Assembly (NCBI GenBank): GCA_016209535.1
Contig: JACQVW010000404.1
Coordinates: 1-61,894 of the forward strand
Reading direction: 5' to 3'
Source of the DNA: Planctomycetota bacterium
Lineage (GTDB): Bacteria; Planctomycetota; UBA8108; SXIK01
Length of the DNA stretch: 61,894 bases
Shown here: positions 7,126-54,690 of the stretch, piece after piece
How positions within the stretch are numbered: the stretch's first letter is position 1
How the letters are laid out: each line of letters starts with the position of its first letter
Program-made: the position numbers and the translations under genes
Notes under the pieces: generated by a model
Database searches by the model: none
What the model saw: only the letters and a program-made list of their open reading frames with translations
What the model was told of the DNA's origin: nothing

Positions 7126-7161
7126 GGCTTGGACTCCTGAGCTCTGACTTCTGACTTCTGG

Positions 7162-10440: not shown

Positions 10441-10444
10441 TTCA

Positions 10445-11233
10445 TCACCTCAGCCCCTGGAATGTCTCGAGGAGACGCCGCAGCACGCTCGGCTCCGTTC
10501 CGCCGGCCGCCACGAACAGGACGCCGCGGACGGTCGCCATGAGGACCCGACAGTCGCGCACATCCTCCTCGATCAAGCCTTCCGGGGCTGCGGCGATCGC
10601 CTCCATGACGCTCTCGGGCGGCTTCAGGGGCCCGAGGATGACCGTCACGTCCCGGCCGCCGATGCGGTACGTGACGTAGCCCACGGGACCACCCAGGAAG
10701 GTGCACCGGCGCGCCCCCACGAGCTCGGCCGGACAGGCCTCGGTCTCGGCGACCGAGCTCCCGTCGGGCACGATGACGTCGAAGCCCAGCTCGCCCGCGT
10801 AGAAGCCCCGGACGAGAGCGGCCTCCGGGCCGCGCACCTGGATCGGGCTCTTCCCGGCCAGGTACTTCTCGTGGTGCTCGACGGCCGAGCGTGCGGCGGC
10901 GGATGGGCCGGCTCGGTTCAGCGCCAGGGAGAGCAGCAGGCAGGCCAGAAGCAGGAGCGCGGCGGCGTTCGCTCCCCACAGCCACCAGGTCCTCCGGGGC
11001 CCGTGAACGGCCCGGACGCGCGCCTCGAGCTCCTGCCAGGGGAAGCCTTCGAGAGGGCCCGCGCTCTTCCAGGCCGCGCAAGCGACGGCCTCCTCGAGCC
11101 GCCGTTCCCGGGCCCACAGGTCGCGACACCCCGGGCAGGCCTCGAGGTGCAGGTTCACCTCCTCGGCGCCGCGCGGGTCGAGCTCGCTGTCGTGGTAGAG
11201 GAAGAAGAGCCGCCGGGCTTCCTCGCATCTCAT
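10445..11233 (-). CDS. membrane-spanning anti-sigma factor (zf-HC2 N-terminus)
   Basis: HLEACPGC zinc-finger motif, one TM helix and a periplasmic domain. Overlaps the sigma gene stop. Confidence 0.7.
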   Translation of the reverse strand: MRCEEARRLFFLYHDSELDPRGAEEVNLHLEACPGCRDLWARERRLEEAVACAAWKSAGPLEGFPWQELEARVRAVHGPRRTWWLWGANAAALLLLACLLLSLALNRAGPSAAARSAVEHHEKYLAGKSPIQVRGPEAALVRGFYAGELGFDVIVPDGSSVAETEACPAELVGARRCTFLGGPVGYVTYRIGGRDVTVILGPLKPPESVMEAIAAAPEGLIEEDVRDCRVLMATVRGVLFVAAGGTEPSVLRRLLETFQGLR

Positions 11234-11799
11234 GGCCTGGGCCTCCTTTCCGGGCCTTGCCCCTCGCCGAGCCGGCGCGAGGAGATGTGCACGCGAAGGC
11301 GCTTCCGGGCCCGCGCGAGGTGGCTCATGGCGGTCCCCTCGGGCATCCCCAGGGCCTCGGCGATCTCACGGTAGGAGAGGTCCCCCACGCACTTCAGGAG
11401 GAGGACGAGGCGCTCCGCCGCGGCGAGCGCGCGGATCGCCTCCGCGAGGTCCTCGTCCAGGGTGGCGAGGACCGACTCCGGCTCGTGGAAGAAGCCCTCG
11501 TAGGCCGACTCCCAATGGAGGAGCGTGTCCGGAGCCTCGAGCTCCGCGGGCAGGGGGACCTCCAGCTCCTCGCGCAGCAGGCGGTTCCGGTTGCGGACCG
11601 TGTTGACCAGGTACTTGAGGACCCAGGCCCTGAAGGAGGCGCCTTCCCGGTAGCGGGCGAAGTCGCGCCACGCCTTCAGGATCGCGTCCTGCAGGGCGTC
11701 GTCCGCGTCCGCCTTCCTCGAGAGCAGGCTGCGGCTGACTGCGAGGAGCCGCTCGCGATAAGGGGCCAGGAGCGTGAGGAAGCGTTCCGGATCGGACAA
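11230..11799 (-). CDS. ECF-type RNA polymerase sigma-70 factor
   Basis: 189 aa. Region 2 (DALQDAILKAW) and region 4 (LSYREIAEALGMPEGTAMSHLARARKRL). TTG start with AGGAG upstream. Confidence 0.85.
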   Translation of the reverse strand: MSDPERFLTLLAPYRERLLAVSRSLLSRKADADDALQDAILKAWRDFARYREGASFRAWVLKYLVNTVRNRNRLLREELEVPLPAELEAPDTLLHWESAYEGFFHEPESVLATLDEDLAEAIRALAAAERLVLLLKCVGDLSYREIAEALGMPEGTAMSHLARARKRLRVHISSRRLGEGQGPERRPRP

Positions 11800-11849
11800 G
11801 GCGCTGGGTCTCCTGGCCCTTCAATGTGCCGGGGAGGCCGATTCCTTGC

Positions 11850-11873
11850 AAAAAAAAACGGGGACACTCCCGG
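11850..11873 (-). terminator. possible weak intrinsic terminator downstream of the rhodanese gene (short GC hairpin followed by U9)
   Basis: A9 tract at 11850-11858 on the plus strand (U9 on the minus-strand RNA) preceded by GGGA-GUG-UCCC. The stem is only 4 bp. Confidence 0.25.
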
Positions 11874-11986
11874 AATCTGCGGAACGCCGTGGCTCGGCAG
11901 GGCTGGGCCGATCCGGAGCCTGCCGGGGGTGGCCGTCGACCGCGGGTCGCACCGCAGGCCCGTCGCAGGGACCGGAGGCCTGCCGG

Positions 11987-12493
11987 CTATCGCCGGCCGG
12001 ACCCCTCCGGCTTCCGCGGGGACCCCTTTCCCTTGGGAGATGTCGCGGGTTGCCTCGGAATGTCCTGCACGGGGTAGCCCGCACGGACCCACCCGGCGAT
12101 CCCGTCGGGGTACTCGATCACGTTCGAGTACCCGAGGCTTCTTAGCCGGTCCGACAGCTTCCGCCGCAGAGGGCACCGAGTATCGGTGCAGTAGACCACG
12201 ACGAGGGCACCCTTCTCATCGACCGCCGCGGCCACCTCCCCCGATGTCGGCTCGGCGGCGATGAGCTTGGCGCCCCGGATCACCTGGTCGGCCTTGCCCC
12301 GCGCGTCGAGGAGGACGAGCGGGACCCTCGATCGGAGGAGGGCCATGAGGGCGGCGCCGTTCAGCTCGGCGGTCGGCTCCTTCTTCTTTCCGGCCTTGGT
12401 GTGGCTCCCCTCTTCCTCGGGCCGAGCCACCGTGATGCCGAGGACGAGGACGAAGAGGAGCGCGGTGGCACAATACGAAGCGATCGGTTTCAT
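11987..12493 (-). CDS. rhodanese-like sulfurtransferase domain protein, secreted or anchored
   Basis: 168 aa. Signal-like N-terminus. Active-site loop VVVYCTDTRCP. AAGGAGA precedes ATG 12493. Confidence 0.8.
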   Translation of the reverse strand: MKPIASYCATALLFVLVLGITVARPEEEGSHTKAGKKKEPTAELNGAALMALLRSRVPLVLLDARGKADQVIRGAKLIAAEPTSGEVAAAVDEKGALVVVYCTDTRCPLRRKLSDRLRSLGYSNVIEYPDGIAGWVRAGYPVQDIPRQPATSPKGKGSPRKPEGSGRR

Positions 12494-12547
12494 GGATGGT
12501 CTCCTTTCTTTCGACTTGTTCCAACGACAGAGCTGAGCCTGCCCACG

Positions 12548-14095
12548 TCACCGCCGCCACGCGAACCAAGCGTGGAGGAGCTTCCTTGCCGGCGCGGTCA
12601 GCCGGGACCGGTTGTAGGCGTCGGCCGCCTTCTTCAGGACCTCCGCCTGGGTGGGGTACGGGTGGATGGTCCTCGAGAGACGCCTCAAGCCGCGGCCCGA
12701 GACCATGAGGGTCGTGATCTCGGAGATCATCTCCCCGGCGTGCCGCGCGACGAGGGTCGCTCCCAGCACCCTGTCCGTCCCGCGCTTGAGGTGGACCTTG
12801 AGGAACCCGAAGTCCTCCCCGTCGAGCACGGCGCGGTCCACCTCCGCCAGCGGGACGGTGAGCGTCTCGACGGGGATGCCGCGGGCCTCGGCGTCCTTCG
12901 CGTAAAGCCCCACGTGCGCGATCTCCGGGTCCGTGTAGGTGCACCAGGGAATGGTCAAGGCGCTCGCGCGGGCGCTCCGGAAGAAGAGAGCGTTCTGGAT
13001 CGCGATCCGGGCCAGCGCGTCGGCCATGTGCGTGAACCGGTACGGGGAGCAGACGTCGCCGGCGGCGTAGATCCTCCGGTTGGTGGTCCGGAGGAAGTCG
13101 TCGACCTTGACGCCCGAGCGCCGGTCGCAGGCAACGCCGGCCGCCTCGAGGTCGAGGCCCTCCACGTTGGGGGCGCGCCCGACGCCCACCAGGATCTCGT
13201 CCACGGGGATCTCCAGGGGCTTCCCCTCCCGGGAGAGGACGAGCCGCTTGGCGCTGCCGTTCTTGACCTCGAGGATGTCGCTCCCGCAGAGGAGGCGCAC
13301 GCCGTCGCGCTCGAGAGCCGATTCGATCACCCGCGCCGCGTCCCGGTCCTCGCGGGTGAGGATCTGGAGGTCCTTCTCGATCAAGCATACCTCGGACCCG
13401 AACCGAGCGAAGCTTTGCGCCAGCTCGCAGCCGATGGGGCCGCCCCCGATGACCGCGAGGCGCGGGGGCAAGGCCCGGAGCGAGAACACGGTCTCGTTCG
13501 TCAGGTAGCCCGCCGCGGCGAGCCCCGGTATCGGAGGCGCCGCGGCGCGGGCCCCCGTGGCGACCACGGCCCGCGAGAACCGGAGCCGCTTCCCGCCGAC
13601 CTCGACCTCGTCCCGGCCGGCGAAGCGCGCGTCTCCAAAGAAGACGTCGACTCCGAGCCCCCGGAAGCGCTGGGCGGAGTCGTTCCGGCTGATGCGCGCC
13701 CTCAGGCCGCGCATGCGGTCCAGCACCGCGGCGAAGTCCACCCGCACGCCTCCCGGGACCACGACGCCGAAGGCGCCCGCGTCCCGCGTCTCCGCGTAGG
13801 CCCTCGCGCAGCGGATCAGCGCCTTCGACGGCACGCAGCCGTAGTTCAGGCAGTCGCCGCCGAGGAGGTGCCTCTCTACCAGCGCCACCTTCGCCCCGAG
13901 GCCCGCCGCCCCGGCGGCAGCGACGAGGCCCGCGGTCCCGGCACCGATCACGACCAGGTTGTAGCGGCCGCTCGGCTCGGGGTTCACCCATTCCGGAGGA
14001 TGGACATTCGATTGCAGGGTCCGATCGTGATCGTCCATCGGCCGGCCGGCCTGGAGCCCATCCGGCGGGCTCAAGCTCTCCAGGGGTGGCTTCAT
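12548..14095 (-). CDS. FAD-dependent pyridine nucleotide-disulfide oxidoreductase (mercuric reductase / dihydrolipoamide dehydrogenase-like)
   Basis: Internal ATG 14095 of the 1086-aa track ORF. GAGTAG dinucleotide fold, redox-active GGDCLNYGCVPSK motif and C-terminal dimerisation domain. ATGA overlap with the upstream gene. Confidence 0.85.
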   Translation of the reverse strand: MKPPLESLSPPDGLQAGRPMDDHDRTLQSNVHPPEWVNPEPSGRYNLVVIGAGTAGLVAAAGAAGLGAKVALVERHLLGGDCLNYGCVPSKALIRCARAYAETRDAGAFGVVVPGGVRVDFAAVLDRMRGLRARISRNDSAQRFRGLGVDVFFGDARFAGRDEVEVGGKRLRFSRAVVATGARAAAPPIPGLAAAGYLTNETVFSLRALPPRLAVIGGGPIGCELAQSFARFGSEVCLIEKDLQILTREDRDAARVIESALERDGVRLLCGSDILEVKNGSAKRLVLSREGKPLEIPVDEILVGVGRAPNVEGLDLEAAGVACDRRSGVKVDDFLRTTNRRIYAAGDVCSPYRFTHMADALARIAIQNALFFRSARASALTIPWCTYTDPEIAHVGLYAKDAEARGIPVETLTVPLAEVDRAVLDGEDFGFLKVHLKRGTDRVLGATLVARHAGEMISEITTLMVSGRGLRRLSRTIHPYPTQAEVLKKAADAYNRSRLTAPARKLLHAWFAWRR

Positions 14096-15699
14096 GGTTC
14101 GCTCCCCTTTCCGTTGAGGGACCACTCGTAGTCCAGCCACTCGATCCTCGGCGCCTTCCCGGCCGCGAGCGCCTCCCGGAGCTCGGGGACATACCGAGCG
14201 GCGAACTCGAGCACCGAGCCTGCCCCCTGCTCGAAGTCGCCGCCGTACCAGTCGTAGAGCCGGGTGAGCCGCACGGTGCCGTGCTCCAGGTCGAGCTCGA
14301 GCCAGCGCGCAGGAGCATGCACGCGGCGCGCCTGGTCCTCGAGCTGTCCCTCCAGCCGCTTCCCGGTGAAGGCCTCGCTTCTCAACGGCGGGCAGCCTTT
14401 CGCTGCACAGACGAGCGCGAAATGGACCCGAGGCTCCCGGAACCGGGAGCGGATCTGCTCGTGCTCGATCTCCTCGAGGCTCCAGACGTGCGGCCCGACG
14501 CGCCAGCGCCGGTCCTCCCACCGCCTCGCGGCGGGTATGTCCTTGATCGAGCGTAGCGGGTAGCGCTCCAGGACCAGCCGGAGCGTGAAGGCGTTGTACG
14601 CGTTCAAGAGGAGCGCGAGCTTCTCGTCGCGCCCGAGCCCGTCGAAGGGTGCTACGGCGAGCGTCTCGATGTACCGCTCCAGCATGTCTCCGTCGTCCTT
14701 GAGCCCCCGGTAGTCCACCCGGCCTTCGCCGTCGACGTGCCGCCGGAGGAGGCCGTCGAGGAGCGCGTGGTCGAATGCGCGCCCCTCGCGCTGGTCCTCG
14801 TAAGCCTCCACCATCGTGACCCTGGGCGGGCCGAGGGCGCGCTGCAGCACGTCGCGCCCCAGGTAGGCGCAGGCGTTGGCCGCGACGACGAGTCCGGCGA
14901 GGGAGGCGAGCAGCACCGCGCGGCGGAGCGATCCGCGGGCCGGGACGGCCTCGCGAGCTCCCGGGGCGCCGCACCCGCGCGAGATCCCGGCCTCGATCCC
15001 CGCGTCGCGGACCGCCTTGCGGGCGAGACGGGTCACGTAGGCGGTCACGGCCAGCGTGGCCACGAGCCCGACGGCCAGGAGTGCCCACCGGCCCGCTGCC
15101 CCGGCTGGCCGTGTGCCGCTCGCCGCCTCGAGCCCCGCTCTGCCTGCGTACCCCAGGTACACGTAGAGGAAGGTCCCCGGCAGCATCGTCAGCCAGCTCG
15201 TCGCCAGGTACGGCCAGAAACGAATGAGTGTGAGGCCGAAGAGGTAGTTGCTCAGGCTGAACGGTATGACCGGCGACAGCCGGAGGAGCGCGAGGATGAC
15301 CCAGCCCCGCGCCCCGATCGCCGCGTCGACCGCGCCGAACGTGGGGCTCTGGCCAGCCTTCCGCCTCACGGCGTCCCTCGCGAGGTAGCGAGCGAGGAGA
15401 AACGCCAGACCGGCCGCCAGCGTCGAGGCGAGAGACACCATCGCGGTCCCCAAGGCGAGGCCGAAGAGCGCTCCGGCGGCGATGGTGAGGGCCGAGCCCG
15501 GGACCAGCAGCACGGCGGAGAGCACGTAGAGGGCCGCGAACGCAGCCGGCCCCCACACGCCGAGCCCCTCGATCCGGCCGAGGAGCGCCTGGAGGACGCG
15601 GTCGACTGGGAGCAGCCGGGCGATCGCGATCAGCCCGCCAGCGATGACCGCCGCCGAGACCCACTGGACCGCCATCGTGGAGCGCTCGTTCAGGGTCAT
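14092..15699 (-). CDS. fusion of a TVP38/TMEM64 (DedA-like) membrane domain with a DUF547 domain
   Basis: Internal ATG 15699 of the 821-aa track ORF. SNARE-associated-type TM region, then DUF547-like LLNAYNAFTL...HFALVCAAKGCPPL. ATGA overlap with arsS. Confidence 0.8.
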   Translation of the reverse strand: MTLNERSTMAVQWVSAAVIAGGLIAIARLLPVDRVLQALLGRIEGLGVWGPAAFAALYVLSAVLLVPGSALTIAAGALFGLALGTAMVSLASTLAAGLAFLLARYLARDAVRRKAGQSPTFGAVDAAIGARGWVILALLRLSPVIPFSLSNYLFGLTLIRFWPYLATSWLTMLPGTFLYVYLGYAGRAGLEAASGTRPAGAAGRWALLAVGLVATLAVTAYVTRLARKAVRDAGIEAGISRGCGAPGAREAVPARGSLRRAVLLASLAGLVVAANACAYLGRDVLQRALGPPRVTMVEAYEDQREGRAFDHALLDGLLRRHVDGEGRVDYRGLKDDGDMLERYIETLAVAPFDGLGRDEKLALLLNAYNAFTLRLVLERYPLRSIKDIPAARRWEDRRWRVGPHVWSLEEIEHEQIRSRFREPRVHFALVCAAKGCPPLRSEAFTGKRLEGQLEDQARRVHAPARWLELDLEHGTVRLTRLYDWYGGDFEQGAGSVLEFAARYVPELREALAAGKAPRIEWLDYEWSLNGKGSEP

Positions 15700-16685
15700 G
15701 CCAGCGCTCCGCCGCAGGAGGACCCCTGGCCGGCCGTGCAGCCAAAGCAGTGGGAGCCCGTCGCGATCCTCCGGGCTGCGAGCTCCCCTGGGCGGAAGTC
15801 GCGGACATGACCTCTCACGCGAGTCGAGGTGGGCAGGCCGAGGGCGTAGTTGAAGTCGCAGTCGTACAGCGTGCCGTCCCAGCCCACGTTCACCTGGCGG
15901 CGGCACATGAGGCCGTCGATGGTCGCGGGATTGAAGGCGTTCCGGAGAACCTCCATGTACTGCTCGGCTTTCCCTTGCCGTGCGAGGTCGAGGAGGAAGC
16001 GCCCGACCGGCATGTTGGCGATCGCGACGAGCCGCGTGAAGCGAATGCCGTAGCGGGCGGCCAGCTCGCGGCGGTAAGCCGCCTCGAGCGCCTCCTGAGG
16101 AGGGGGAAGGTGCGGGCCGAGGGGGTTGTAGACCAGGTCCAGGGGCAGGTCCGGCTGGACCCCGTAGCCCAGCCCGTTCAGGATGACGATGGTCGCGATG
16201 CTGTCGTCGAAGACGCCCTTGCCGCGCTGGCCGTCGACGTTCTTCTCGAGGTAGCAGGGCAGCGAGGCGACCAGGTGGACCTTGAGCTCGCGGAAGAGCT
16301 CGGGCAGGTCTTCGTAGCCCGGCTCGAGGAGGATCGTGAGGTTCGTGCGGACCATGACCTCCAAGCCCTGGGCCGCGGCCGCCGCGATGAACGCACGGAA
16401 GCGCGGGTGCATCTCCGGCGCGCCGCCCGTCAAGTCGAGCGTCCGGGCGCCCGCCTCCCGCGCCGCCGCGAGGACGAGCCGCATCGTGGGCCAGTCCATC
16501 TCCTCGGCGCGGCCCGGTGAGGACTCGACATGGCAGTGCCGGCAGGCGAGGTTGCACCTCAAGCCGATGTTCGCCTGAACGGTGTCGATGGATAGCCCGT
16601 GGAGCGGACCGCCGTCCGCTTCCGCCACGCGGCGGTCGAAGTCATTCAGCGCGGCGGACCGCATCTCTCGTGCCAGATAGGTCAT
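15696..16685 (-). CDS. arsS: radical SAM/Cys-rich protein, ArsS-type (arsenosugar biosynthesis family)
   Basis: 329 aa. CNLACRHCH (CxxxCxxC) radical SAM site. C-terminal Cys-rich GSHCFGCTAGQGSSCGG tail (Cys form, not Sec). Confidence 0.8.
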   Translation of the reverse strand: MTYLAREMRSAALNDFDRRVAEADGGPLHGLSIDTVQANIGLRCNLACRHCHVESSPGRAEEMDWPTMRLVLAAAREAGARTLDLTGGAPEMHPRFRAFIAAAAAQGLEVMVRTNLTILLEPGYEDLPELFRELKVHLVASLPCYLEKNVDGQRGKGVFDDSIATIVILNGLGYGVQPDLPLDLVYNPLGPHLPPPQEALEAAYRRELAARYGIRFTRLVAIANMPVGRFLLDLARQGKAEQYMEVLRNAFNPATIDGLMCRRQVNVGWDGTLYDCDFNYALGLPTSTRVRGHVRDFRPGELAARRIATGSHCFGCTAGQGSSCGGALA

Positions 16686-16694
16686 GTTTCCCTT

Positions 16695-17828
16695 TCATGC
16701 CAAGGGGCGAAGGAGCGAAAAGAGCCCGCCGCCGAGCAGCGCCGCGACCGGCAGCGTGGTCACCCACGCCGCCAGGATTTGGGCGATCACCTTTCCATCG
16801 GCGGAACGTCGGACGAGCCCGATCCCGAAGATCGACCCGCAGGCCACGTGCGTCGTCGAGACGGGGAGCCCCAGCCGCGATGCGCCCAGGACGAACGCCG
16901 CGGTGACCAGGTTCGCGGTCAGCCCCTGGCCGGAGTTGAGCGCCGTGATGCGCTTTCCCATGGTGCGGGCCACCTTGCGGGAGCCCAGGACTCCCCCGAC
17001 CGCCATGGCGAGCGCGATGAGCCCAAGGTGGAGCCACGAGAGCCACCTCCCGGCGGCGATCATGAGCGCCGCGATCTTCGGCGTGTCGTTGACGGCCCGG
17101 GCGAAGCAAACCACTCCCGCGCTCAGGAAGTGGACCCGGTCCACCATCGCCTGGGCGCTGAGCCCGAGGACCCGGCCCAGGTAACGCTCGCGGCATACCG
17201 CCTCGGGACCGACGGTGAGCGCGGGCACGGCCCTGGCGGGCGCGGGAAGTCGAGCGAAGGGCGCGAGGGCTGCCGCCGGGTTCGCCGGCTGGGGCGACAG
17301 ATCCCCGACGCAGACGCAGGTCTCGCGCGTGATGCCAAGGCCAGCCCGCGCAGCCCGCAGGAGCGGGTAGCAGAGCCCCGCGCCCGCGATGGCCGCGAGC
17401 GGGCTCAGGAGGAGGGGCTGCAGGAAGCGGCCTTGGAGCACGCCCCATCGCATGCGCTCCGGATCGGCAGCGAACGCCGCCCCGAGGAGCGCGCCGAGGA
17501 GAGCGTGCGTCGTCGAGGTCGGCATCCCCAGGACGGTCGCGAGGAGGATTGTGACTGCCGCGGCGCCTGCCACACTGATCCGGATCGGCCACGTGCCCAT
17601 GAGCTCACCCGACAGGATCCCCTCCCCGCTGAAGGTCGCTGCCAGGCGCCTGGCCAGCAGGACAGCGGCGCAGCTCCCGGCCAGTGTGGCGAGGGTCGAC
17701 CACGAGAGCGCCGCCCGGAACCCGGTCGTGCCGCTGCCGTAGAGCGTTGCGACCCCCTTGAAGTTGTCATTGGCCCCGTTCGCATAGGCGAGCCACAGGA
17801 CCGTGACAAGGAGGACCCAGGCCGTCAT
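16695..17828 (-). CDS. PiT-family inorganic phosphate (possibly arsenate) transporter
   Basis: GANDNFKG signature. About 10 TM helices. ATG 17828 preceded by GAAGGAGGA; the track ORF extends upstream artefactually. Confidence 0.85.
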   Translation of the reverse strand: MTAWVLLVTVLWLAYANGANDNFKGVATLYGSGTTGFRAALSWSTLATLAGSCAAVLLARRLAATFSGEGILSGELMGTWPIRISVAGAAAVTILLATVLGMPTSTTHALLGALLGAAFAADPERMRWGVLQGRFLQPLLLSPLAAIAGAGLCYPLLRAARAGLGITRETCVCVGDLSPQPANPAAALAPFARLPAPARAVPALTVGPEAVCRERYLGRVLGLSAQAMVDRVHFLSAGVVCFARAVNDTPKIAALMIAAGRWLSWLHLGLIALAMAVGGVLGSRKVARTMGKRITALNSGQGLTANLVTAAFVLGASRLGLPVSTTHVACGSIFGIGLVRRSADGKVIAQILAAWVTTLPVAALLGGGLFSLLRPLA

Positions 17829-17856
17829 GCGTCCTCCTTCTCGGATCGCGGGCGCA

Positions 17857-18978
17857 TCAGCAGCACCCCGAGCCGCACTGGCCGGTCGCATCCTGAGGCC
17901 CAGGCAGCGGCCCGACCGGCAGCACCTCGCCGGCATAGGGCCCCGCTGGGTTCGTCAAGATGTCGTGGGTCTTGCGGCACACGGGAGCTCGGCGGCCTCG
18001 GACGAAGACGTGGCCGTCGTCGTCGCGCACCTCCTTCCAGGGGCCGCGATAGATCACCGCCTGGCCATCGTCGATGCAGGGCCCCTCCTTCCCCTTGTAG
18101 GCCCTCACGGTGAGCGAACGAAAATCGACCCCTTCAACCACCTTCCACGGCCTCTCGCTCCGCTCGAGGATCTCGATTCCATGGAACCCGGCCTCCTCGA
18201 ACATCTCGAGGAGGGCCTCCTCCCGGAAGGCACCCGCGATGCAGCCGCTCCAGAGCTCCGGGTCCTTCCGGATCGCGGGCTCGGGCTCCCTGTCGCACAC
18301 GATGTCCGAGATCACCGCGCGCCCGCCGCGGCGCAGCACGCGGTGGATCTCCTGGAAGAGGTGCAGCCTGTCGCGCGGCGCCACCAGGTTGAGCACGCAA
18401 TTGGAGACGACCACGTCGATGGTCTCATCGGCGATCAACGGCTCCTCCCTCCGCAGCCGGTTGCACTCGGCCTCGAGGGCGTGGAGCCCGCTCGATGAGG
18501 AGACCGGGTTCGCGTCGAGCCACAGGTCCACTCGCTCCAGGTCGAGCGCCAGGTCCTGGATCCGTGCCTTCACGAACCGGGTGTTGGCGTGGCCAAGCTT
18601 CCGGGCCATCTCGGCCTGGTATTTCCGCGCCACGGCCAGCATCTCGTCGTTGAAGTCGGCGCCGGTGACGGATCCCTTCGGTCCGACTTTCTGGGCCAGG
18701 ATGTAGCAGACTTTGCCCGCGCCGCTCCCGAGGTCCAGCACTCGTTCGCCCTCGCCGACGTGCCGCGACGGGTCGCCGCAGCCGTAGTCCTTCTCGAGGA
18801 TCTCGCGGGGCAGCTTTTCGAGACAGGCGGGGTCGTAGGACGTGGGGCAGCAGAGGCCCGCCTCGCGGGCCCTGGCGCCCCGTCCGTAGCGCTCGAGGAC
18901 CGCCGCCTCGACGCTCCAGTCGAAGTCATCGACCTTTCCCGTGAGGTCCGATCCTCTCCGCGCGGCAATTTTCGCCAT
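17857..18978 (-). CDS. arsM: arsenite S-adenosylmethionine methyltransferase ArsM-type
   Basis: 373 aa. CC pair, YGCGDP, VLDLGSGAG SAM motif, VVSNCVLNL and CIAGA motifs typical of ArsM. AGGAGA precedes the ATG. Confidence 0.8.
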   Translation of the reverse strand: MAKIAARRGSDLTGKVDDFDWSVEAAVLERYGRGARAREAGLCCPTSYDPACLEKLPREILEKDYGCGDPSRHVGEGERVLDLGSGAGKVCYILAQKVGPKGSVTGADFNDEMLAVARKYQAEMARKLGHANTRFVKARIQDLALDLERVDLWLDANPVSSSSGLHALEAECNRLRREEPLIADETIDVVVSNCVLNLVAPRDRLHLFQEIHRVLRRGGRAVISDIVCDREPEPAIRKDPELWSGCIAGAFREEALLEMFEEAGFHGIEILERSERPWKVVEGVDFRSLTVRAYKGKEGPCIDDGQAVIYRGPWKEVRDDDGHVFVRGRRAPVCRKTHDILTNPAGPYAGEVLPVGPLPGPQDATGQCGSGCC

Positions 18979-18996
18979 GGTTTCTCCTGTAAAGAC

Positions 18997-19023
18997 AACG
19001 AAAACGTCTCGCCACCTGGTTCC
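18997..19023 (-). promoter_or_regulatory. candidate ECF-type promoter GGAAC-N18-CGTT upstream of arsM
   Basis: Minus-strand GGGAAC (19023-19019), 18-nt spacer, CGTT (19000-18997), ending 18 nt before the arsM ATG. Same motif class occurs at three other sites. Confidence 0.3.
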
Positions 19024-19116
19024 CTGCTGCCTGTTGGTCGGTCCAGCCGCTCCGCCCTTACATCGTTGCCCCTCGCCTCGCCCGTCGCAGCGGCGGGGTA
19101 AGCCAGGAGCGCTCCG

Positions 19117-26475: not shown

Positions 26476-26719
26476 GGGCCTTGGAAGATGCGAGGGCCTG
26501 GCAGGAGACGACGGGAGACCCCGGGTCGCCCTGCAAGGCAGATCTGGTGAATTGGCCATCCCGGAGGGCTCCGGGCGACGGGTTGTGGTCCGGGCGTGCT
26601 TCCACGGCACGCCCGCCTCTGAGACAACGGCCGATCCCGCGGAGAAGTTCCAGACCACGGGGGGCCGGAGTCTCGAGCATGGTAGGCTGGCGCCGGACCG
26701 CGGATCAAGGCCGAGCTCT

Positions 26720-26745
26720 GGAACCTTTCGCGCCCCGGGGCCGTT
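26720..26745 (+). promoter_or_regulatory. candidate autoregulated ECF-type promoter GGAAC-N17-CGTT upstream of the sigma gene at 26793
   Basis: GGAAC 26720-26724 and CGTT 26742-26745, 47 nt before the ATG. Confidence 0.4.
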
Positions 26746-26792
26746 ATGCTTGCAGGAACCGAAAGATTCCCCGCCGGCTTGACGGGAGACGG

Positions 26793-27392
26793 ATGCCCAG
26801 CTCGAGAGAAGAATCCCACGAGTTCGAGGAGGCGATGCTGCCGCATCTCGACGCCGTCTACCGGTTCGCCGTCTACCTCACGGGCAACGAGCCCGACGCC
26901 GAGGACCTCGTTCAGGAGACTTACCACCACGCCATGCGCCGCTTCGACCGCTTCCAGCCCGGCACGAACGCCAGGGCCTGGCTCTTTACCATAGCCAGGA
27001 ACTGCCGCATCGACCGTGCACGGCGGGAGTCCCGGGAGTCCCACTTTGCGGACATCGCGGACCTCGAGGAGACGCTCGACCTCGAGGACCGCAAGGCGAG
27101 CCCCGAGGCGCGCTTGGAGGACTGGGCGAGCCTGTCCATCGACGGCGAGGACGTCTTCTTCGACCTCTTCGGCGACGAGGTGAACCGGTTCCTCGCCGAG
27201 CTGCCCTCCGGTTTCCGGGCCGCCCTCCTCCTCTGCGACGTGGAGGGGCTCAGCTACCGCGAGATCGGCGAGGCGCTCGGCTGCCCCGTGGGCACCGTGC
27301 GCTCGCGGATCGCGAGGGCACGAGAGCACCTGAGGGTCAAGCTCTACGAGTATGCCAAGGGGCTCGGTTTCGTGAAGCACGGGGCGGGTTGA
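26793..27392 (+). CDS. ECF-type RNA polymerase sigma-70 factor
   Basis: 199 aa from ATG 26793 (GGGAGA upstream). Region 2 (EDLVQETYHHAM) and region 4 (LSYREIGEALGCPVGTVRSRIARAREHL). Confidence 0.85.
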   Translation: MPSSREESHEFEEAMLPHLDAVYRFAVYLTGNEPDAEDLVQETYHHAMRRFDRFQPGTNARAWLFTIARNCRIDRARRESRESHFADIADLEETLDLEDRKASPEARLEDWASLSIDGEDVFFDLFGDEVNRFLAELPSGFRAALLLCDVEGLSYREIGEALGCPVGTVRSRIARAREHLRVKLYEYAKGLGFVKHGAG

Positions 27393-27415
27393 TCCCGAGA
27401 GAGAGCGCGGAAGCC

Positions 27416-28228
27416 ATGGACTGCAAGCAAGCCCTCGAGAGGTTGCACGAGCTGGTGGACGGTGAGCTGCCCGGCCTCGCGGAGGAGGCCGTGCGCCAGC
27501 ACCTCGCCTCGTGCCCGGGCTGTTTCCGGACCCACGGAGGCCTCTCGAGCCTGAAGCGGCTCGTCCAGCAGAAGGTCAGGAAGCTCGCGCCGCCCCCGGC
27601 CTTGCTGTCCCGGGTCGTTCGGCGGCTCCGGAGGGGGACCGCGCCAGGCCGGTCGCGTCCCTGGGCGCGTGCTGCTCTGGCGGCAGGGCTGGCCTTCGCG
27701 ACCGTCCTCGGACTCAGCCTGGCGTTCGTCCTGCGGGGACCGAGGCTGGGGCACGCGGAGGCCTCCTCGGCCTGCGCCGATGCCTTCCGGAGCTTGCTCT
27801 CCGGCCTGGGAGCCTCGAGCCGGCCCGAGGGCTGGCAGGCGGACCTCCTCGGGGAGGTCCGGCGGGGGGCGGGGGTCCAGCTCGACCATGTGCCCGAGAT
27901 CCCCAACGCGGCGTACCTCGGCTGGCAGGTGGAGACCGTGAGCAGGGTGAAGACGATCCGCATGGACTTCAGGCCGCTCGAGGGAGCGAGGGACGGGATC
28001 GATGGAAGGAAGGCCGGCGCGGCCCTGATCTCGGTCTTCTTCCTGCCGCTCAAGAGCCTGCACCTGGAGCCTGTGTTCCTCGAGGAGCTCGAGAAGGGCC
28101 ATCCCTGCACGCGCTGCGTCGACATGAGGGACGGAAGCATCTTCTGCTTCCGGTCCCGGGGGTTCCTGCTCACCGTGGTCAGCACGGTGAGCGAGGAGGA
28201 GCTCCTGACGCGACACAGGCCCCGGTGA
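27416..28228 (+). CDS. membrane-spanning anti-sigma factor (zf-HC2)
   Basis: MDCKQALERL...HLASCPGC motif and one TM helix. ATG 27416 is preferred over TTG 27389. Confidence 0.7.
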   Translation: MDCKQALERLHELVDGELPGLAEEAVRQHLASCPGCFRTHGGLSSLKRLVQQKVRKLAPPPALLSRVVRRLRRGTAPGRSRPWARAALAAGLAFATVLGLSLAFVLRGPRLGHAEASSACADAFRSLLSGLGASSRPEGWQADLLGEVRRGAGVQLDHVPEIPNAAYLGWQVETVSRVKTIRMDFRPLEGARDGIDGRKAGAALISVFFLPLKSLHLEPVFLEELEKGHPCTRCVDMRDGSIFCFRSRGFLLTVVSTVSEEELLTRHRPR

Positions 28229-28401
28229 GCCCGCAAGACACCCAACAGGGAGGGGGAGGACGCGCCAGGTACAACAGGTACCGAACCCGACCGGCGGTTC
28301 TCCCCCTCCATTCCTCGCCCCGCGGACGCGGGGTCGGTGTGATGGTGTCGCGAGCGCGGACCGAGGCCGCCGGCGGGCTTGCCGGGACCCCTCGTTTCCC
28401 G

Positions 28402-28428
28402 GGAACTCGAGTGCCCCCCAGGACCGTT
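28402..28428 (+). promoter_or_regulatory. candidate ECF-type promoter GGAAC-N18-CGTT upstream of the YHS/selenoprotein genes
   Basis: GGAAC 28402-28406 and CGTT 28425-28428, in the 300-bp spacer after the anti-sigma gene. Confidence 0.35.
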
Positions 28429-28532
28429 GGAAGGAGAAAGAAGCGGAGGAACGGCCTCCGTCGTGCTGCAAGACGCTCGGATGCAGACCCTGCTCCCGGC
28501 GCGTTCTGGACTTTCTGGAGGAAGGACCTGTC

Positions 28533-28847
28533 ATGCGATACCTCTTCACTGTGGTGGCCCTGGGCGTTCTTGCGAGCGGCTGCCGCGACCCGAAAAAAGT
28601 CGAGGTGCGGGAGCCTGCCGCCCACGGGCACCCTGGCTCCCAGGCGGCCTTGACCTGCCCGGTCTCGGGAGACCCGGCCAGGGAGGACGTCACCTACGTG
28701 CACGAGGGGAGGACGATCCACTTCTGCTGCGCGGACTGCATCGCGCCCTTCAAGAAGGACCCCGGGAAGTACCTGAGCGGGGGCGCGCCCGCAAGGGGCA
28801 AGGCTGCCCCCGGAGGCGCGTCCCGAGAGGGCAGCGGCGCAAAGTGA
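28533..28847 (+). CDS. YHS-domain lipoprotein (metal-binding)
   Basis: Lipobox LASGC. CPVSG...Y..EGRTIHFCCADCIAPFKKDPGKY matches the YHS/TRASH-type pattern. GGAGGAAGGA precedes the ATG. Confidence 0.7.
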   Translation: MRYLFTVVALGVLASGCRDPKKVEVREPAAHGHPGSQAALTCPVSGDPAREDVTYVHEGRTIHFCCADCIAPFKKDPGKYLSGGAPARGKAAPGGASREGSGAK

Positions 28848-28861
28848 GGAGAGCTCGACGG

Positions 28862-30388
28862 ATGTCAGTACCGACCACGCCTCGCACGCCCCTCTCGTGG
28901 CACCTGGTCCTGGCCACAGCCCTCCTGGCCCCTTGCATGGCACGCGGCGACGATCCGGCCGCCAAGGCTCGGCGCGCCATCGCGGATTTCCGCGCCGGCT
29001 TCAAGCCGGAGAAGAGCTACATGCGCCCGCTCGGCGACGAGGGCTGGAAGGCGCGCTTCACCGCGCTCGCGGACCTCGTCGCCTCCGGCGCGGCCTCCAC
29101 GCCGACGCTCCTCGAGGCCCTTGGAGAAGAAGATCCGGAGCTGCGAGTCTTCTCCGCGCAAGCCCTGTCCGTCACGGCCGATCCGCACGCGCTGCCGAGG
29201 CTCCTCGAGGCGGTGGAGAAGGACCCCGAGCCTGCCGTCCGGCTCTATGCCGCGGACGCCCTGGGAACCCTGGACGGCGCCGGGGCCCGCCAGGCCCTCG
29301 AGAAATCGAAGGCCGAGGACAAGAACGGCGACGTGCGGGCTCACGCCGGCTTCGCCCTCGAGCGGAAGGGGCGGGAGGCCCTCGAGGAGGTCCGCAAAGC
29401 GCTCGAGGGCTTCGACCCGAAGCGGCTGGCCGCCGCGAGGCTCGGCGAGCCAGCTCCGGACTTCACCCTACGGTCCCACGACGGCGCCGAGGTCGAGCTC
29501 AGGAGCTTCCGGGGCAAGAAGACCGTCATCCTCGTCTTCATCTACGGCGACACGTGACCCGTCTGCCACAAGCAGCTCGCGCAGTTGCGCGAGAGGAAAG
29601 GCGAGCTGGAGAATCTCGGGGCCCAGGTCCTCGTGATCGATCCGCACGAGTCCTACCGCGTGGCCCACATGCTGCGGAGCTCGGAGCGCGAGGGAGCGGG
29701 GGCCGGCTTCCCCGTGCTCGCCGATGCCGCCGGCGCCGTCAGCGCCTCCTACGGGGTGGCCATGCAGATGCGTATTCACGGGGAGCGCTCCAACCGCCCG
29801 GCGACCTTCGTGATCGACCGGGACGGCGCGATCCGGTTCCAGCAGCTTGCGACGACGTACTCCGACCGGCCTGCGCCCGAGAAGCTCATGGCCCTTGTCC
29901 GCCGCCTGGCGGGCGCTCCCCCGGAGCCGGAGCTCGAGGTGCGCGGCAAGGCGGAGACGCCGCCGGTGCGTCCTGGGCAAGCCGAGGCAGGTTTCACCCG
30001 CCAGCGCTTCCTCGAGGAGGTCTCCCGCTCGAAGATCGGCTACACGGTGGCCACGGTCTTCCACCCCGCATGCCCCGGCTGCCTCACCGAGGCCATCGCG
30101 CTCGCCGGGGTCGAGAAGGCGTGGGGCGAGCTCGGGGTCGGCATCTTGGGGCTCGCCGTGACGGCGCTCGAGGACCCGGTGCGCCGGTTCGTCAAGGCGT
30201 CCAAGGCAGGCTACCGCGTGGAGCTCGCTCCCTGGGCGCTTGAGGCGTTCGGGGTCAGGTTCTTCCCGACCCTGATCATCTTCGACAAGAAGGGCGAGGA
30301 GGTCTTCCGCGCCGCCGAGGACCACGAGGACCCGGTCGGGGCCGCGCGCGAGTTCCTGGAATCGAGGCTGAAGACGCGGGGGTCCTGA
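28862..30388 (+). CDS. candidate selenoprotein: signal peptide, HEAT repeats, redoxin domain with T-U-P-V-C (TGA 29555-29557 read as Sec), second thioredoxin-like domain (CPGC)
   Basis: The ORF stops at TGA exactly where redoxins carry the first Cys of CxxC (VILVFIYGDT*PVCHKQL). The same frame stays open to 30388. A hairpin lies 19 nt downstream. The downstream fragment has no ATG or SD of its own. Confidence 0.6.
29576..29593 (+). promoter_or_regulatory. SECIS-like stem-loop (CUCGCGC-AGUU-GCGCGAG) downstream of the in-frame UGA
   Basis: Perfect 7-bp stem and a 4-nt apical loop containing GU. The loop G is 29 nt 3' of the U of the UGA, within the spacing used for bacterial SECIS models. Confidence 0.4.
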
Positions 30389-30415
30389 TCCCCTCCGACC
30401 CCCGCCCCTTTCCTG

Positions 30416-30453
30416 GAGGACCGGGCGCCCCTCCGCGCCCGGTCCTCTTTCTC
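30416..30453 (+). terminator. intrinsic terminator-like hairpin (13-bp perfect stem GAGGACCGGGCGC / GCGCCCGGTCCTC, loop CCCTCC, then TTTCTCC)
   Basis: Read directly. Lies between the convergent genes ending at 30388 (+) and 30483 (-). Confidence 0.6.
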
Positions 30454-30803
30454 CGGCTCAATCTCGCCGAATCCGCACGGCACTAGGGGGACTCTCTCGC
30501 CTCAAAGCCCGCCTCCGCGACCGCCTTCATGATCGGCGAGGGCGCGGGCGGCCTTTTGGCGTCGAGCGTCAGGACCGCGCGCCCGTCCTGGAAGCTGACG
30601 ACAACCCTCTGGACGCCGGGGATGCCGGCGGGCTTCCTCTCGAGCTGGAGCGCGCAGGCCTCGCAGGTCATCCCGTCGATCCGGAGGGTCAGGACCCTCG
30701 TCGGGCCGGCGGCGGCCTTCTCGACGCGCGGCCGGCTCGAGAGGAGAAGGGGGGCGTAGTACGGGAACGAGGCGGCGGCAAGCGCTGCTGCGGCTGCGAT
30801 CCA
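30426..30803. repeat. direct repeat copy A (about 95% identical to 38128-38529): 3' part of an HMA-domain gene plus about 55 nt downstream
   Basis: Manual alignment of the two segments gives roughly 15 substitutions plus one indel block. Confidence 0.85.
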
Positions 30804-30872
30804 AAGGACAACGGATCCCTGGGCCCTGAGGTTCCAACAACCTGGAACCGACCGGCCTCTCTGAACGTTCAT
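30483..30872 (-). CDS. membrane-anchored heavy-metal-associated (HMA) domain protein, MerP/CopZ-like
   Basis: 129 aa from internal ATG 30872. One TM helix. GMTCEAC metal-binding motif. The C-terminal ~105 aa are near-identical to the end of the 38209-39345 product. Confidence 0.75.
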   Translation of the reverse strand: MNVQRGRSVPGCWNLRAQGSVVLWIAAAAALAAASFPYYAPLLLSSRPRVEKAAAGPTRVLTLRIDGMTCEACALQLERKPAGIPGVQRVVVSFQDGRAVLTLDAKRPPAPSPIMKAVAEAGFEARESP

Positions 30873-31228
30873 CGGATGCCCCTTGTTCGGCCAGACCCGA
30901 TGGGTCCTCGGTGCCAACCAGCCGCGTGGCACCGAGTTCCGAGCGGGGGGGAGCACGGGGAAAACGGTAACGCGTACCCCCAAGTGTGCCTCCTCCCCGC
31001 TTCTCTTGCTGGGGATAGGGCACAGACTGCCATCTACGGCGCGGCCAGAAGGGGTTCCGAGCGAGCCCGAGAGGAGATCCGGACCAACCGGCCCACTCGA
31101 GCTTAAAACGTAGCGGGAAGCAGTCGCGAGTTCTCACTTGTTGCGGATCTCGCGTGGGTGGAGAATGGTCCTCGGTACGCGTTCCCGGGAGCGCCGGGTT
31201 GAAGGCCGCGCTCGGAAGGAGAACCAGG

Positions 31229-38127: not shown

Positions 38128-38529
38128 CGCCCCTCCGCGCCCGGTCCTCTCTTTCCGGCTCAAGCTCGCCGAATCCGCACGGCGCCAAGGGCCTTCTCAT
38201 GGAAGGCCCTAAGGGGACTCTCTCGCCTCAAAGCCAGCATCCGCGACCGCCTTCATGATCAGCGAGGGTGCGGGCGGCCCTTTGGCGTCGAGCGTCAGGA
38301 CCGCGCGCCCCTCCTGGAAGCTGACGACAACCCTCTGGACGCCGAGGATGCCGGCGAGCTTCCTCTCGAGCTGGAGCGCGCAGGCCTCGCAGGTCATCCC
38401 GTCGATCCGGAGGGTCAGGACCCTCGTTGGGCCGGCGGCGGCCTTCTCGACGCGCGGCCTGCTCGAGAGGAGAAGGGGGGCGTAGTACGGGAACGAGGCG
38501 GCGGCAAGCGCTGCCGCCGCCGCGATCCA
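38128..38529. repeat. direct repeat copy B (partner of 30426-30803) with an extra 27-nt palindromic segment at 38184-38210
   Basis: Manual alignment. The insert forms a 9-bp hairpin AGGGCCTTC-TCATG-GAAGGCCCT spanning the stop codon of the 38209 gene. Confidence 0.85.
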
Positions 38530-39345
38530 CAGGAAGACCCGCCGCAATCGATGGGACCGCACTCCCGCCCCAGCGCACGCCCCGCCGGAGCACGCGTTCT
38601 TCCTCCGAGAGCAGGTGAGGTAGAACCCCGCGGCGAGGAGAAGGGGAGCGAGGGCAAGGAAGAGTGGGCGCAGGCGCTCGAAGGTCGCGGCCATCCCTGC
38701 CGCGGAGATCCCGAAGAGCACCAGGAGGACCGGCAGCCAGCAGCACGCCGAGGCGAGGAGGGCCGCGAGGAGAGCGGCTCCGGCCGCAAGGAGCCCGGCG
38801 CCCCCGCGGCGCGAAGTGGCCTCATCGGGCTGGGGTGGCGCGGGCAGCGGAGCGCAGCAATCGTGGCCCTGGTCTGGCACGGAGGGGAGCTGGGAAGGGA
38901 GCGGCTTCGCGCGCCGAGGCCACCGCGATGCCGCGAACGCCTCCTCCACGGCCCTTTGCACGTCGCCCAGGCAGCAGCTCCCCTTGGGATTGAGGACCTC
39001 GCAGCGGCAGAGGCCCGCCTTGACCTTCGCTGTGATCGAGGCCAGGACGGAGCTCTCGCCCGTGCCCTCGATCTCCGCCCGGATGCTCTCGGCAGTGTGG
39101 CCGAAGCAGTAGCAGAGAGGGCGAGGGGAGGTCTTCTCCTTCAGGCCCACGCGGACCTTCAAGGCGCTCCTCGAGAGCGTCCTCCCCCCGGGGGTGAAGT
39201 AGACGACGTCGCAGTCAGGGAGGTCGCAGAAGAGCCACTCCTCCGTCTCGACGCCCCGAGCGTGCTCCTCCTGGACGAGGCTACGCACGGTGACGGAGGG
39301 CACGGGCACGCCGGGCTTCCCGGCGGCGGGGCAGAGAGTCTGCAT
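38209..39345 (-). CDS. three-part metal-handling protein: N-terminal Cys-rich (CopZ-NT / 2Fe-2S-like) domain, MerT-like CC-containing TM region, C-terminal HMA domain
   Basis: 378 aa. CYCFGHT...GLCRCEVLNPKGSCCLGD. TM helix with ASACCWLPVLL. GMTCEAC. Confidence 0.7.
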   Translation of the reverse strand: MQTLCPAAGKPGVPVPSVTVRSLVQEEHARGVETEEWLFCDLPDCDVVYFTPGGRTLSRSALKVRVGLKEKTSPRPLCYCFGHTAESIRAEIEGTGESSVLASITAKVKAGLCRCEVLNPKGSCCLGDVQRAVEEAFAASRWPRRAKPLPSQLPSVPDQGHDCCAPLPAPPQPDEATSRRGGAGLLAAGAALLAALLASACCWLPVLLVLFGISAAGMAATFERLRPLFLALAPLLLAAGFYLTCSRRKNACSGGACAGAGVRSHRLRRVFLWIAAAAALAAASFPYYAPLLLSSRPRVEKAAAGPTRVLTLRIDGMTCEACALQLERKLAGILGVQRVVVSFQEGRAVLTLDAKGPPAPSLIMKAVADAGFEARESP

Positions 39346-39359
39346 CGCGAGCCTCGGCG

Positions 39360-39584
39360 CTACGAGCGCTCGCAGCAGGAGCCCGCTGCGGTCTTGGCTG
39401 CGGACTTGGCCGCCTCAGGGCCCAGAGGGCACCGGTCGGCGCAGACCTCCTCGCCGGTGATCGGGCAGATGATCTTGCCGGGGCAGTCCGGCCTCTCTCC
39501 GCCTGCGAAGCCGAGACCAGAAAGCGCGATTCCCGAGCCGAGGAGGACGGAGAGGGCCACGATCCAAGGGGCGGTCTTCTTCAT
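39360..39584 (-). CDS. small secreted Cys-rich protein
   Basis: 74 aa from ATG 39584. Signal peptide. CPGKIICPITGEEVCADRCP and C-terminal CC. Lies between merR-like and merT-like genes. Confidence 0.5.
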   Translation of the reverse strand: MKKTAPWIVALSVLLGSGIALSGLGFAGGERPDCPGKIICPITGEEVCADRCPLGPEAAKSAAKTAAGSCCERS

Positions 39585-51868: not shown

Positions 51869-51962
51869 GGCAAAAGGTAAAGTGCTGGATTCTAAGAAAC
51901 TGCCCGGTTAGCCGCGACACCCCGACGAGGCGAAAGGGTGCCGGGACCGAAAGGAGACCGAG

Positions 51963-53345: not shown

Positions 53346-53515
53346 CATAGAATGCCACCGGGTGCAGGGCGGGCGCGGCTGGAGGCCGAGATGCTCGGCT
53401 GACCACAACCGCGGCGTAGCCGCGCGGGCGCACCCCGGCGCGGTGAGGCGGCGCCCCCCATGGGACGGGGAAGCCGAGGGCGAAGAGCCAACCAACGGGA
53501 GGCAAGGCCCCATCC

Positions 53516-54657: not shown

Positions 54658-54690
54658 TGTAACGCCCGATGCATATAGGTAGAGGACCCA

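Follow-up and report, generated by a model that had tools for sequence, protein, structure and literature searches.

Prokaryotic selenoprotein families are classified by their domain together with the motif that carries selenocysteine (Sec) (PMC13188914, PMC9312934, PMC2398784). The described class closest to the gene reported here is the peroxiredoxin (Prx)-like thiol:disulfide oxidoreductase of the UxxC/UxxU type (PF00578; Geobacter WP_010940744.1; 'Prx-like 1' of the Global Ocean Sampling (GOS) survey). Its members combine an AhpC/TSA domain with Sec as the first residue of UxxC, and they have UxxU variants, Cys homologues, and a bacterial selenocysteine insertion sequence (SECIS) within the open reading frame (ORF) just downstream of the Sec codon, and the function of the class is predicted (PMC13188914, PMC9312934, PMC2398784). 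In the GOS survey, Prx-like 1 was represented by 225 Sec forms and 2,740 Cys forms (PMC13188914, PMC9312934, PMC2398784). Here we analysed a stretch of 61,894 nt from a Planctomycetota bacterium (assembly GCA_016209535.1, contig JACQVW010000404.1, forward strand), referred to as the window, in which positions 28862-30388 very probably form one gene for an exported selenoprotein of ~480 residues. The predicted protein consists of a signal peptide, HEAT repeats, a Prx-like domain with a U-P-V-C motif, and a TlpA-like domain with a CPGC motif. The domain-plus-motif rule places it among the 'Prx-like thiol:disulfide oxidoreductase (UxxC/UxxU)' selenoproteins. All features of this known class that can be tested in the sequence were found here, and the gene shares with the class each of the characters listed above. 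That UxxC redoxin selenoproteins are known had been stated in an initial annotation made from the same DNA, and the gene indeed falls among them. It differs from the described members in the added signal peptide, N-terminal HEAT module and C-terminal CPGC domain, and it belongs to a HEAT-containing clade that is nearly confined to Planctomycetota and nearly fixed for Sec. No description of HEAT-fused selenoproteins, or of selenoproteins of Planctomycetota, was found in the literature that could be searched. Neither HEAT nor planctomycetes are mentioned in PMC13188914, PMC9312934, PMC2398784 and the Haft preprint, and one further paper names Planctomycetes once, in an unrelated context.

Two other selenoprotein families were compared with the window protein. 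The SelL-related family (NF040769) gave the best NCBIfam match; it has a Prx-like fold and the redox motif at the same place, and some relatives of the window gene have UxxU, as SelL does. However, only the first 79 of the 173 model positions aligned, the score of 54.6 bits stayed below the cutoff of 120, and the protein is not a member. PrxU (NF040737) has the AhpC/TSA fold in common with the window protein, but its Sec is the peroxidatic residue (TxxU), whereas Sec here stands at the Thr position and Cys at the peroxidatic position (UxxC). Membership in PrxU was rejected, as the score was 53 bits against a cutoff of 270 and the Sec lies elsewhere. No NCBIfam model reached its cutoff for the window protein.

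Conservation of the in-frame TGA codon

The frame that opens at ATG 28862 was found to contain a single in-frame TGA, at 29555-29557 (codon 232), and to be otherwise open to the TGA at 30386-30388. This agrees with the initial annotation, in which the ORF was seen to stop at the first TGA and the same frame to go on. The codon is located in the context ...KKTVILVFIYGDT-TGA-PVCHKQLAQLRER..., with the residues VFIYGDT upstream of it. The GC content at third codon positions (GC3) amounts to 0.94 in the part of the frame before the codon and 0.91 in the part after it. No other TGA in the window, which was scanned throughout, combined coding-type GC3 on both sides with a redox motif. Three other in-frame TGA candidates of the window were rejected as ordinary gene junctions. 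When the TGA was translated as a residue, the Pfam AhpC-TSA model matched residues 195-326 (E 3.8e-32, 111.3 bits, cutoff 26), and the Redoxin model matched in the same domain (E 5e-25). The AhpC/TSA match runs across codon 232, in line with the earlier proposal that neither fragment alone would hold a complete thioredoxin fold. The Logan contig SRR12113390 (L168) was identical to positions 28162-29621 of the window, with 0 mismatches over 1460 nt that include the TGA and the hairpin described below. Because L168 is an independent assembly, a sequencing slip is unlikely.

Homologous loci were retrieved from species-representative genomes and metagenomes with alignment A1, which covers the HEAT and AhpC region. 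Because the peptide patterns used for retrieval leave out the Sec column, the codon there did not bias the sampling. TGA was observed at the Sec232 column in 149 of the 153 homologous loci aligned across it, and Cys in none of them; the remaining four comprised one TCA (Ser) lineage in three assemblies and one paralogue without the motif. Identity among the TGA-bearing loci is 36-56%. Cys was found at this column in the close homologues P0002 and P0004 (GDTCPVCH), and the codon in P0004 is TGT (DNA of L165). TGA or Cys in homologues was the pattern that the initial annotation had looked to as a check of its proposal. In addition, a library of 1.84 billion representative proteins was searched with the Cys form P0002. 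Among the top 150 library representatives, at least 67 were N-terminal fragments stopping at the Sec column, and the ...YGDT ending was verified in P0022 and P0026. The full-span matches from this search were more distant HEAT-Prx-like subfamilies with CxxC, in the forms C-M-[FY]-C, C-P-Y-C and W-C-P-V-C. TGA in close relatives and Cys in sister subfamilies together represent the classical signature of a Sec/Cys pair.

The protein calls of P0010-P0012 end exactly at ...FIYGDT. In the DNA of these three, the stop is TGA, and the frame continues through PVCH and completes the AhpC/TSA domain. No homologue genuinely ended at the column with a separate gene downstream, an outcome that would have spoken against the initial annotation; the frame always continued via PVCH, and the AhpC/TSA fold was completed in all read-throughs. 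A second TGA, at the codon equivalent to Cys235, was found in five loci and gives a UxxU motif (L060 at 4608, L110 at 2544, L139 at 893, L140 at 852 and L161 at 139). The motif is FFIEDT-U-PI-U in L139, L140 and L161, and the last two carry a long C-terminal HEAT-repeat array, with ~516 residues in all after the first Sec. These comparisons indicate that TGA 29555 is, in all likelihood, a genuine Sec codon in an exported redox protein.

The hairpin downstream of the UGA and the Sec machinery

A bacterial SECIS is expected as a stem-loop directly past the UGA, with a small apical loop containing G (PMC1088965). The initial annotation had reported a perfect 7-bp hairpin with a GU-containing loop at 29576-29593, and it was found there, 18 nt past the UGA, with a folding energy of -12.0 kcal/mol in isolation. 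Its AGUU loop, conservation, covariation and frozen synonymous sites agree with what is expected of a bacterial SECIS. Among 131 unique 66-nt segments following the TGA, 96 contained an AGUU-loop hairpin with the stem 22-23 nt from the U of UGA. In alignment A2, an ungapped alignment of 114 main-group post-TGA segments, 84.7% of the cells in the stem columns (22-28/33-39) were paired, a value reached by 0 of 500 shuffles. Pairing fell to 9-68% when the partner was slid. Four of the seven pairs were changed on both sides (21 cells); for instance, CUC...GAG is replaced by GUU...AAC, which changes L to V and E to N and keeps the pairing. In 100 of 100 genes, the A-Q-L residues were encoded by GCG-CAG-TTG; elsewhere in the same genes, the shares of these codons are 0.36, 0.64 and 0.20.

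In a divergent subgroup (YGDG-U-PVCLGQ), this site is occupied by another 7-bp stem (CAAGCUG...CAGCUUG), whose loop is AGUUC, CGUGU or CGUGA. RNAalifold found this stem unaided in 12 of 12 sequences, and two of its pairs show compensatory changes. The Cys-form gene L165 has the codons GCT CAG CTG CGC for A-Q-L-R, by which the stem is broken and the GU of the loop is lost. An alternative hairpin, GCAGCU/AGUUGC (columns 18-23/29-34), pairs well and was rejected, as it shows no compensatory change and has a weaker consensus energy on A2 (-4.1 kcal/mol, against -9.2 kcal/mol for the hairpin at 29576-29593). These sequence comparisons support that the latter behaves as a conserved structured RNA.

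Genes for Sec insertion were located next to a member of the family in the Planctomycetota metagenome-assembled genome (MAG) FR_30 (L064, JAOSKN010000002.1). There, selA, selD, tRNA-SeC(UCA) and selB occupy positions 9149-12883, 2-6 kb downstream of the family gene. In tblastn comparisons with the Escherichia coli proteins, E-values were 2e-83 for selA, 2e-63 for selD and 3e-61 for selB. The lineage carrying the family thus has Sec machinery, in one case right beside the gene.

Domain architecture and family breadth

The features of the locus are given in Table 1. A hydrophobic signal-like segment was present in 62 of the 63 family loci with a complete N-terminus, and the W and R of the YMRPxDDxGW motif are invariant in A1. 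For the middle domain, the nearest solved homologue is Mycobacterium tuberculosis AhpE (E 1e-15), and the Foldseek neighbours listed were nearly all peroxiredoxins. The best target-normalised TM-scores were those of BCP-type Prx (0.86-0.88), followed by the thiol-disulfide oxidoreductase 4nmu (0.80-0.85), and ResA was matched weakly. AhpE and BCP/PrxQ (1xxu, 3drn, 3hjp) are therefore the nearest proteins by both sequence and fold, and their Cys and Arg are kept in the window protein. However, these proteins have no selenium, HEAT module or thioredoxin fusion, and their PxxxT is not kept here. In the alignment with AhpE, P-L-A-F-T-G-I-C stands opposite Y-G-D-T-U-P-V-C, which places Sec232 at the conserved Thr of TxxC and Cys235 at the peroxidatic position. 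The S, N, R, P and A of the SNRPATF motif are invariant in A1, and the motif aligned with ANR-GTF of AhpE. A typical peroxiredoxin was rejected as the identity of this domain; the PxxxT/SxxC signature is absent, since Thr is replaced by Sec and Pro is missing, and the Cys and Arg312 are kept. The initial annotation had placed the TGA at the first Cys of a redoxin CxxC motif. T-U-P-V-C was confirmed at residues 231-235, and the assignment was refined in that Sec aligns with the Thr of the Prx TxxC. With U-P-V-C, a CxxC-type centre would have been restored within a Prx scaffold whose Arg is retained. In thioredoxin-fold proteins, the N-terminal position of CxxC is the attacking residue.

A second thioredoxin-like domain with CPGC had also been predicted, and CPGC was located at residues 404-407 (30071-30082) in the TlpA-like region. 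Among PDB sequences, this third domain matched 2l5o, a 'putative thioredoxin' (E 2e-4), and 3or5 (E 2e-3); CPGC and [YF]PT were aligned in these weak matches. No Pfam or NCBIfam model reached threshold for it. The CPGC, the cis-Pro-type motif and probably the fold are shared with the periplasmic oxidoreductases TlpA and ResA, with weak matches (E 2e-4 at best), but in the window protein the domain is an accessory module of a fusion and not a membrane-anchored protein in its own right. The AlphaFold2 model of the homologue P0001 shows three folded modules, with moderate confidence overall and confident domain cores. It contains a confident helical repeat at the HEAT region, and the region equivalent to the third domain has alternating strands and helices in a beta-alpha-beta arrangement (predicted local distance difference test (pLDDT) 67-89).

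Table 1 Features of the predicted selenoprotein gene and of the genes directly upstream in the window
Feature	Position	Strand	Basis or remark
ECF sigma	26481-27392	+	Pfam Sigma70_r2/r4_2
Anti-sigma, zf-HC2	27389-28228	+	Pfam zf-HC2
YHS/TRASH-like small lipoprotein ORF	28533..28847	+	directly upstream of the predicted selenoprotein gene; ends at TGA 28845-28847
Shine-Dalgarno-like GGAGAG	28848..28853	+	8 nt ahead of ATG 28862; read off the sequence
Predicted selenoprotein gene	28862..30388	+	508 codons including Sec232; true stop TGA 30386-30388
Signal-peptide-like N-terminus, residues 1-27, ...LVLATALLAPCMA/RGDD	28862..28942	+	read from the sequence
YMRPxDDxGW motif and HEAT repeats, residues 53-166	29018..29359	+	Pfam HEAT_2, residues 81-166, E 3.7e-14
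AhpC/TSA (peroxiredoxin-like) domain, residues 195-326	29444..29839	+	broken only by the predicted Sec codon
Predicted Sec232 (UGA), first position of U-P-V-C	29555..29557	+	TGA column in homologues; AhpE alignment
Cys235 (TGC), predicted Sec partner	29564..29566	+	aligns with the peroxidatic Cys of AhpE
Hairpin CUCGCGC-AGUU-GCGCGAG (SECIS-like)	29576..29593	+	stem starts 22 nt from the U of UGA; small apical loop containing G-U
Arg312 in SNRPATF motif, near-invariant	29795..29797	+	equivalent to the catalytic Arg of peroxiredoxins
Putative C-terminal TlpA-like thioredoxin-fold domain, CPGC and cis-Pro-type FPT	30044..30385	+	PDB sequence matches
Terminator-like hairpin, 14 bp, then UCUUUCUCC	30415..30448	+	3' of the true stop

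The genome matches were almost all from Planctomycetota (Pirellulaceae, Planctomycetaceae and Isosphaeraceae), and a cultured carrier, Tautonia sociabilis GM2012, was among them, with its gene at L010 6001-6897 (NZ_RYZH01000015.1). A two-domain form prevails in the family, as 122 of the 128 complete TGA-bearing loci end 100-140 residues past the Sec. The CPGC domain was found only in the window gene among these 128 loci, and it is also present in the Ser-variant lineage P0001/P0007. The three-part fusion that had been called unusual is therefore rare in its CPGC domain, but the combination of HEAT with a UxxC redoxin is common and forms a large family in Planctomycetota. Gene callers frequently split its members into a HEAT fragment ending in ...YGDT and a separate short AhpC/TSA fragment with inconsistent starts, a systematic mis-annotation.

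P0001, named 'DUF3179 domain-containing (seleno)protein' by NCBI, is the closest full-length homologue (51% identity over 94% of the length), and its HEAT, Prx-like and CPGC domains follow one another as in the window protein. It differs in that the Sec232 codon is TCA (Ser) and in that the protein continues into a DUF3179 domain with its own TGA (U-H-L-C), whereas the window protein stops before DUF3179. The TCA is located at L001 3929-3931 (the P0001 locus, MAG GCA_052744835.1; also in L002 and L003), with a SECIS-like hairpin retained, and this lineage may reflect a recent change from Sec to Ser. The call for P0001 stops at the second TGA, at L001 ~4997-4999 in the DUF3179 domain (...AIAATW-TGA-HLCHNG, a UxxC motif), which probably explains the '(seleno)protein' in its NCBI name. 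Past this TGA, the frame in L001 seems shifted relative to the next called DUF3179 gene.

Proposed mechanism, alternatives and genomic neighbourhood

The comparative evidence shows that the UGA at 29555 is very probably decoded as Sec by the standard bacterial route; in this mechanism, SelB and Sec-tRNA(Sec) would be recruited by the hairpin, which serves as the SECIS. As suggested by the fold and the conserved residues, Sec232 would be the nucleophile that attacks an oxidised substrate in the periplasm. The favoured substrate is a hydroperoxide, since the Prx fold and the Arg are retained; a protein or small-molecule disulfide, in a reductase role like that of TlpA/ResA, would be the alternative. 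Cys235 would then resolve the intermediate to an intramolecular selenenylsulfide. Where the CPGC domain is fused as a third module, as here, it is the most likely reductant of this selenenylsulfide and would itself be recharged by a membrane electron shuttle. The HEAT module, conserved throughout the family, presumably docks a partner or the substrate.

Several observations weigh against this interpretation. No selA, selB, selC or selD was found in the 62-kb window, in which ARAGORN reported no tRNA and ~40 ORFs were compared with Pfam, and the Sec competence of the window's own genome is unproven. Rfam gave no meaningful match, either in a gathering-threshold scan of the window or in an E-value scan of 29500-29700. 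The fold energy of the 66 nt past the TGA is not exceptional (z = -0.78); at 70% GC, fold energy does not discriminate, and the case for an RNA element rests on the comparative evidence. RNAalifold with default settings missed the hairpin on A2 and gave a weak, unrelated 4-bp stem (-1.2 kcal/mol). Direct evaluation of the energies on A2 favoured the hairpin, and with RIBOSUM scoring its 6-bp core was recovered; default consensus folding can miss short, nearly invariant hairpins in coding regions. In addition, the stem overlaps the conserved A-Q-L-R residues, so its conservation is partly at the protein level, and the control for hairpin loss is the single Cys-form gene L165. The Pro and Thr of PxxxTxxC are absent, and peroxidase activity is, on sequence grounds, not assured. 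No convincing conserved operon partner that hints at a substrate was found over 70 genome loci.

An unlikely alternative accepts the selenoprotein and assigns it to the handling of metals or metalloids. The Sec/thiolate pair and the CPGC motif would then bind or reduce Hg, Cu or As, with induction through the ECF sigma factor. Neighbours in the window are consistent with such a role: the YHS-like lipoprotein, an HMA ORF, a CopZ-MerT-HMA fusion, a CusABC-like RND system and an ArsM-like methyltransferase. Genes for an ECF sigma, DUF547, VTT, a methyltransferase and a DUF3179 (seleno)protein are also located at the P0001 locus, in partial synteny, and several metal-transport proteins are known selenoproteins (PMC13188914). 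A SCO1/SenC match of the window protein points the same way, but it is weak and below threshold (E 0.0024). However, no metal-gene neighbour was conserved over the 70 loci, and both the Prx/BCP fold and the conserved Prx Arg favour redox catalysis.

It is very improbable that the TGA is a real stop, in which case a secreted HEAT protein would be encoded ahead of a truncated redoxin gene of its own standing, or the locus would be a pseudogene arising from a nonsense mutation. Public gene callers do annotate the family in this way, with two adjacent calls at L004, L006 and L007 and many truncated representatives, and the window lacks visible Sec machinery. The initial annotation had stated that the downstream fragment has only a TTG start; the first in-frame start past the TGA is indeed TTG 29585, which lies inside the hairpin loop, but later in-frame GTG and ATG codons exist and could also serve such a gene. 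Yet a nonsense mutation would not be kept at one column in 149 loci of such divergence, and the stop would interrupt the AhpC/TSA fold at the motif of its active site. Gene finders begin the downstream pieces at inconsistent positions, and these pieces lack the CxxC strand. Coding-type GC3 is unbroken across the codon, and the Cys homologues are colinear single proteins. Recoding of the UGA as something other than Sec, by near-cognate read-through with Trp or Cys or by a lineage-specific change of the code, is hardly credible: low-level UGA read-through by tRNA-Trp or tRNA-Cys occurs in bacteria and no Sec machinery was seen for the window's genome, but TGA ends the YHS ORF and the gene itself, the latter before a strong terminator (30415-30448; -35.6 kcal/mol, z = -6.2, 0 of 200 shuffles equally stable), ORF lengths in the window are normal under genetic code table 11, the column is a redox Cys in homologues, the hallmark of a Sec/Cys pair, a conserved structured element is located where a bacterial SECIS is expected, and selA, selD, selC and selB adjoin a family member (L064).

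With the selenoprotein reading preferred, the broader meaning of the family can be proposed only tentatively. The YGDT-U-PVCH HEAT-Prx-like proteins could represent an undescribed, Planctomycetota-specific, exported and near-obligate Sec family, and the window form could be a periplasmic relay from UxxC to CPGC, under ECF control in a metal(loid)-stress island, that serves a selenium-based defence of the envelope. The variant is new in architecture and lineage, the kind of selenoprotein is known, and current understanding is not overturned. Most Sec families are dominated by Cys forms, unlike this nearly Sec-fixed clade. Public catalogues list this gene and more than 140 relatives mainly as pairs of truncated ORFs; as no NCBIfam model claims the family, a curated model would be useful and would repair many annotations in Planctomycetota. 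Planctomycetota would emerge as users of an exported selenoprotein, with export indicated by the signal-like N-termini. The cultured T. sociabilis makes Sec insertion and function testable. The replacement of the Prx Thr by Sec, beside the retained Cys and Arg, would be a natural experiment in converting a Prx scaffold to CxxC-type chemistry.

The ECF sigma/anti-sigma pair and the YHS lipoprotein that the initial annotation had placed upstream were all found (Table 1), but this arrangement is not family-wide, and the YHS match (23.6 bits) is below the Pfam cutoff of 30.3. The YHS-like ORF has a lipobox-like LASGC and an HFCCADC motif. It was also considered as a selenoprotein and rejected, having no NCBIfam match and no internal stop codon. 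The commonest neighbour in the family was a Crp-type regulator, in 12 of the 70 loci. Immediately downstream, the HMA-domain ORF (30483-31130, minus strand) is tail-to-tail with the predicted selenoprotein gene. The ORF at 38212-39414 (minus strand) has a CopZ N-terminal Fe-S/zinc domain followed by MerT and HMA (CopZ_Nterm_CC, 120.6 bits, cutoff 100); it scored 77 with the model 'MerT/CopZ fusion-like heavy metal transport selenoprotein', far under the cutoff of 375.

On the minus strand at 14095-19116, a VTT and DUF547 ORF (14095-16641), a PHO4 phosphate-transporter ORF (16698-17954) and an ArsM-like arsenite methyltransferase (17860-19116; 314.8 bits with the arsinothricin ArsM model, cutoff 500) were located. 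VTT, DUF547 and a methyltransferase occur in both the window and L001, which hints at a metalloid-related neighbourhood common to the two. At 4397-11820 (minus strand), a second ECF sigma (11233-11820) and zf-HC2 anti-sigma (10448-11365) are followed by the CusABC-like RND efflux system, which consists of an AcrB/CusA-like protein (7165-10449), an HlyD/CusB-like protein (5923-7161) and an outer-membrane factor (4397-6238). Another HEAT-repeat protein, without relation to the selenoprotein locus, is encoded at 1740-2849 (minus strand; HEAT_2, E 2e-25); HEAT_2 modules are apparently common in the window's genome. On the plus strand at 51912-56496, a phage-type integrase (51912-53342) and a PriCT_1 primase-C-terminal ORF (54949-56496) lie amid unmatched ORFs; a mobile element may have integrated here, at the window's right end.

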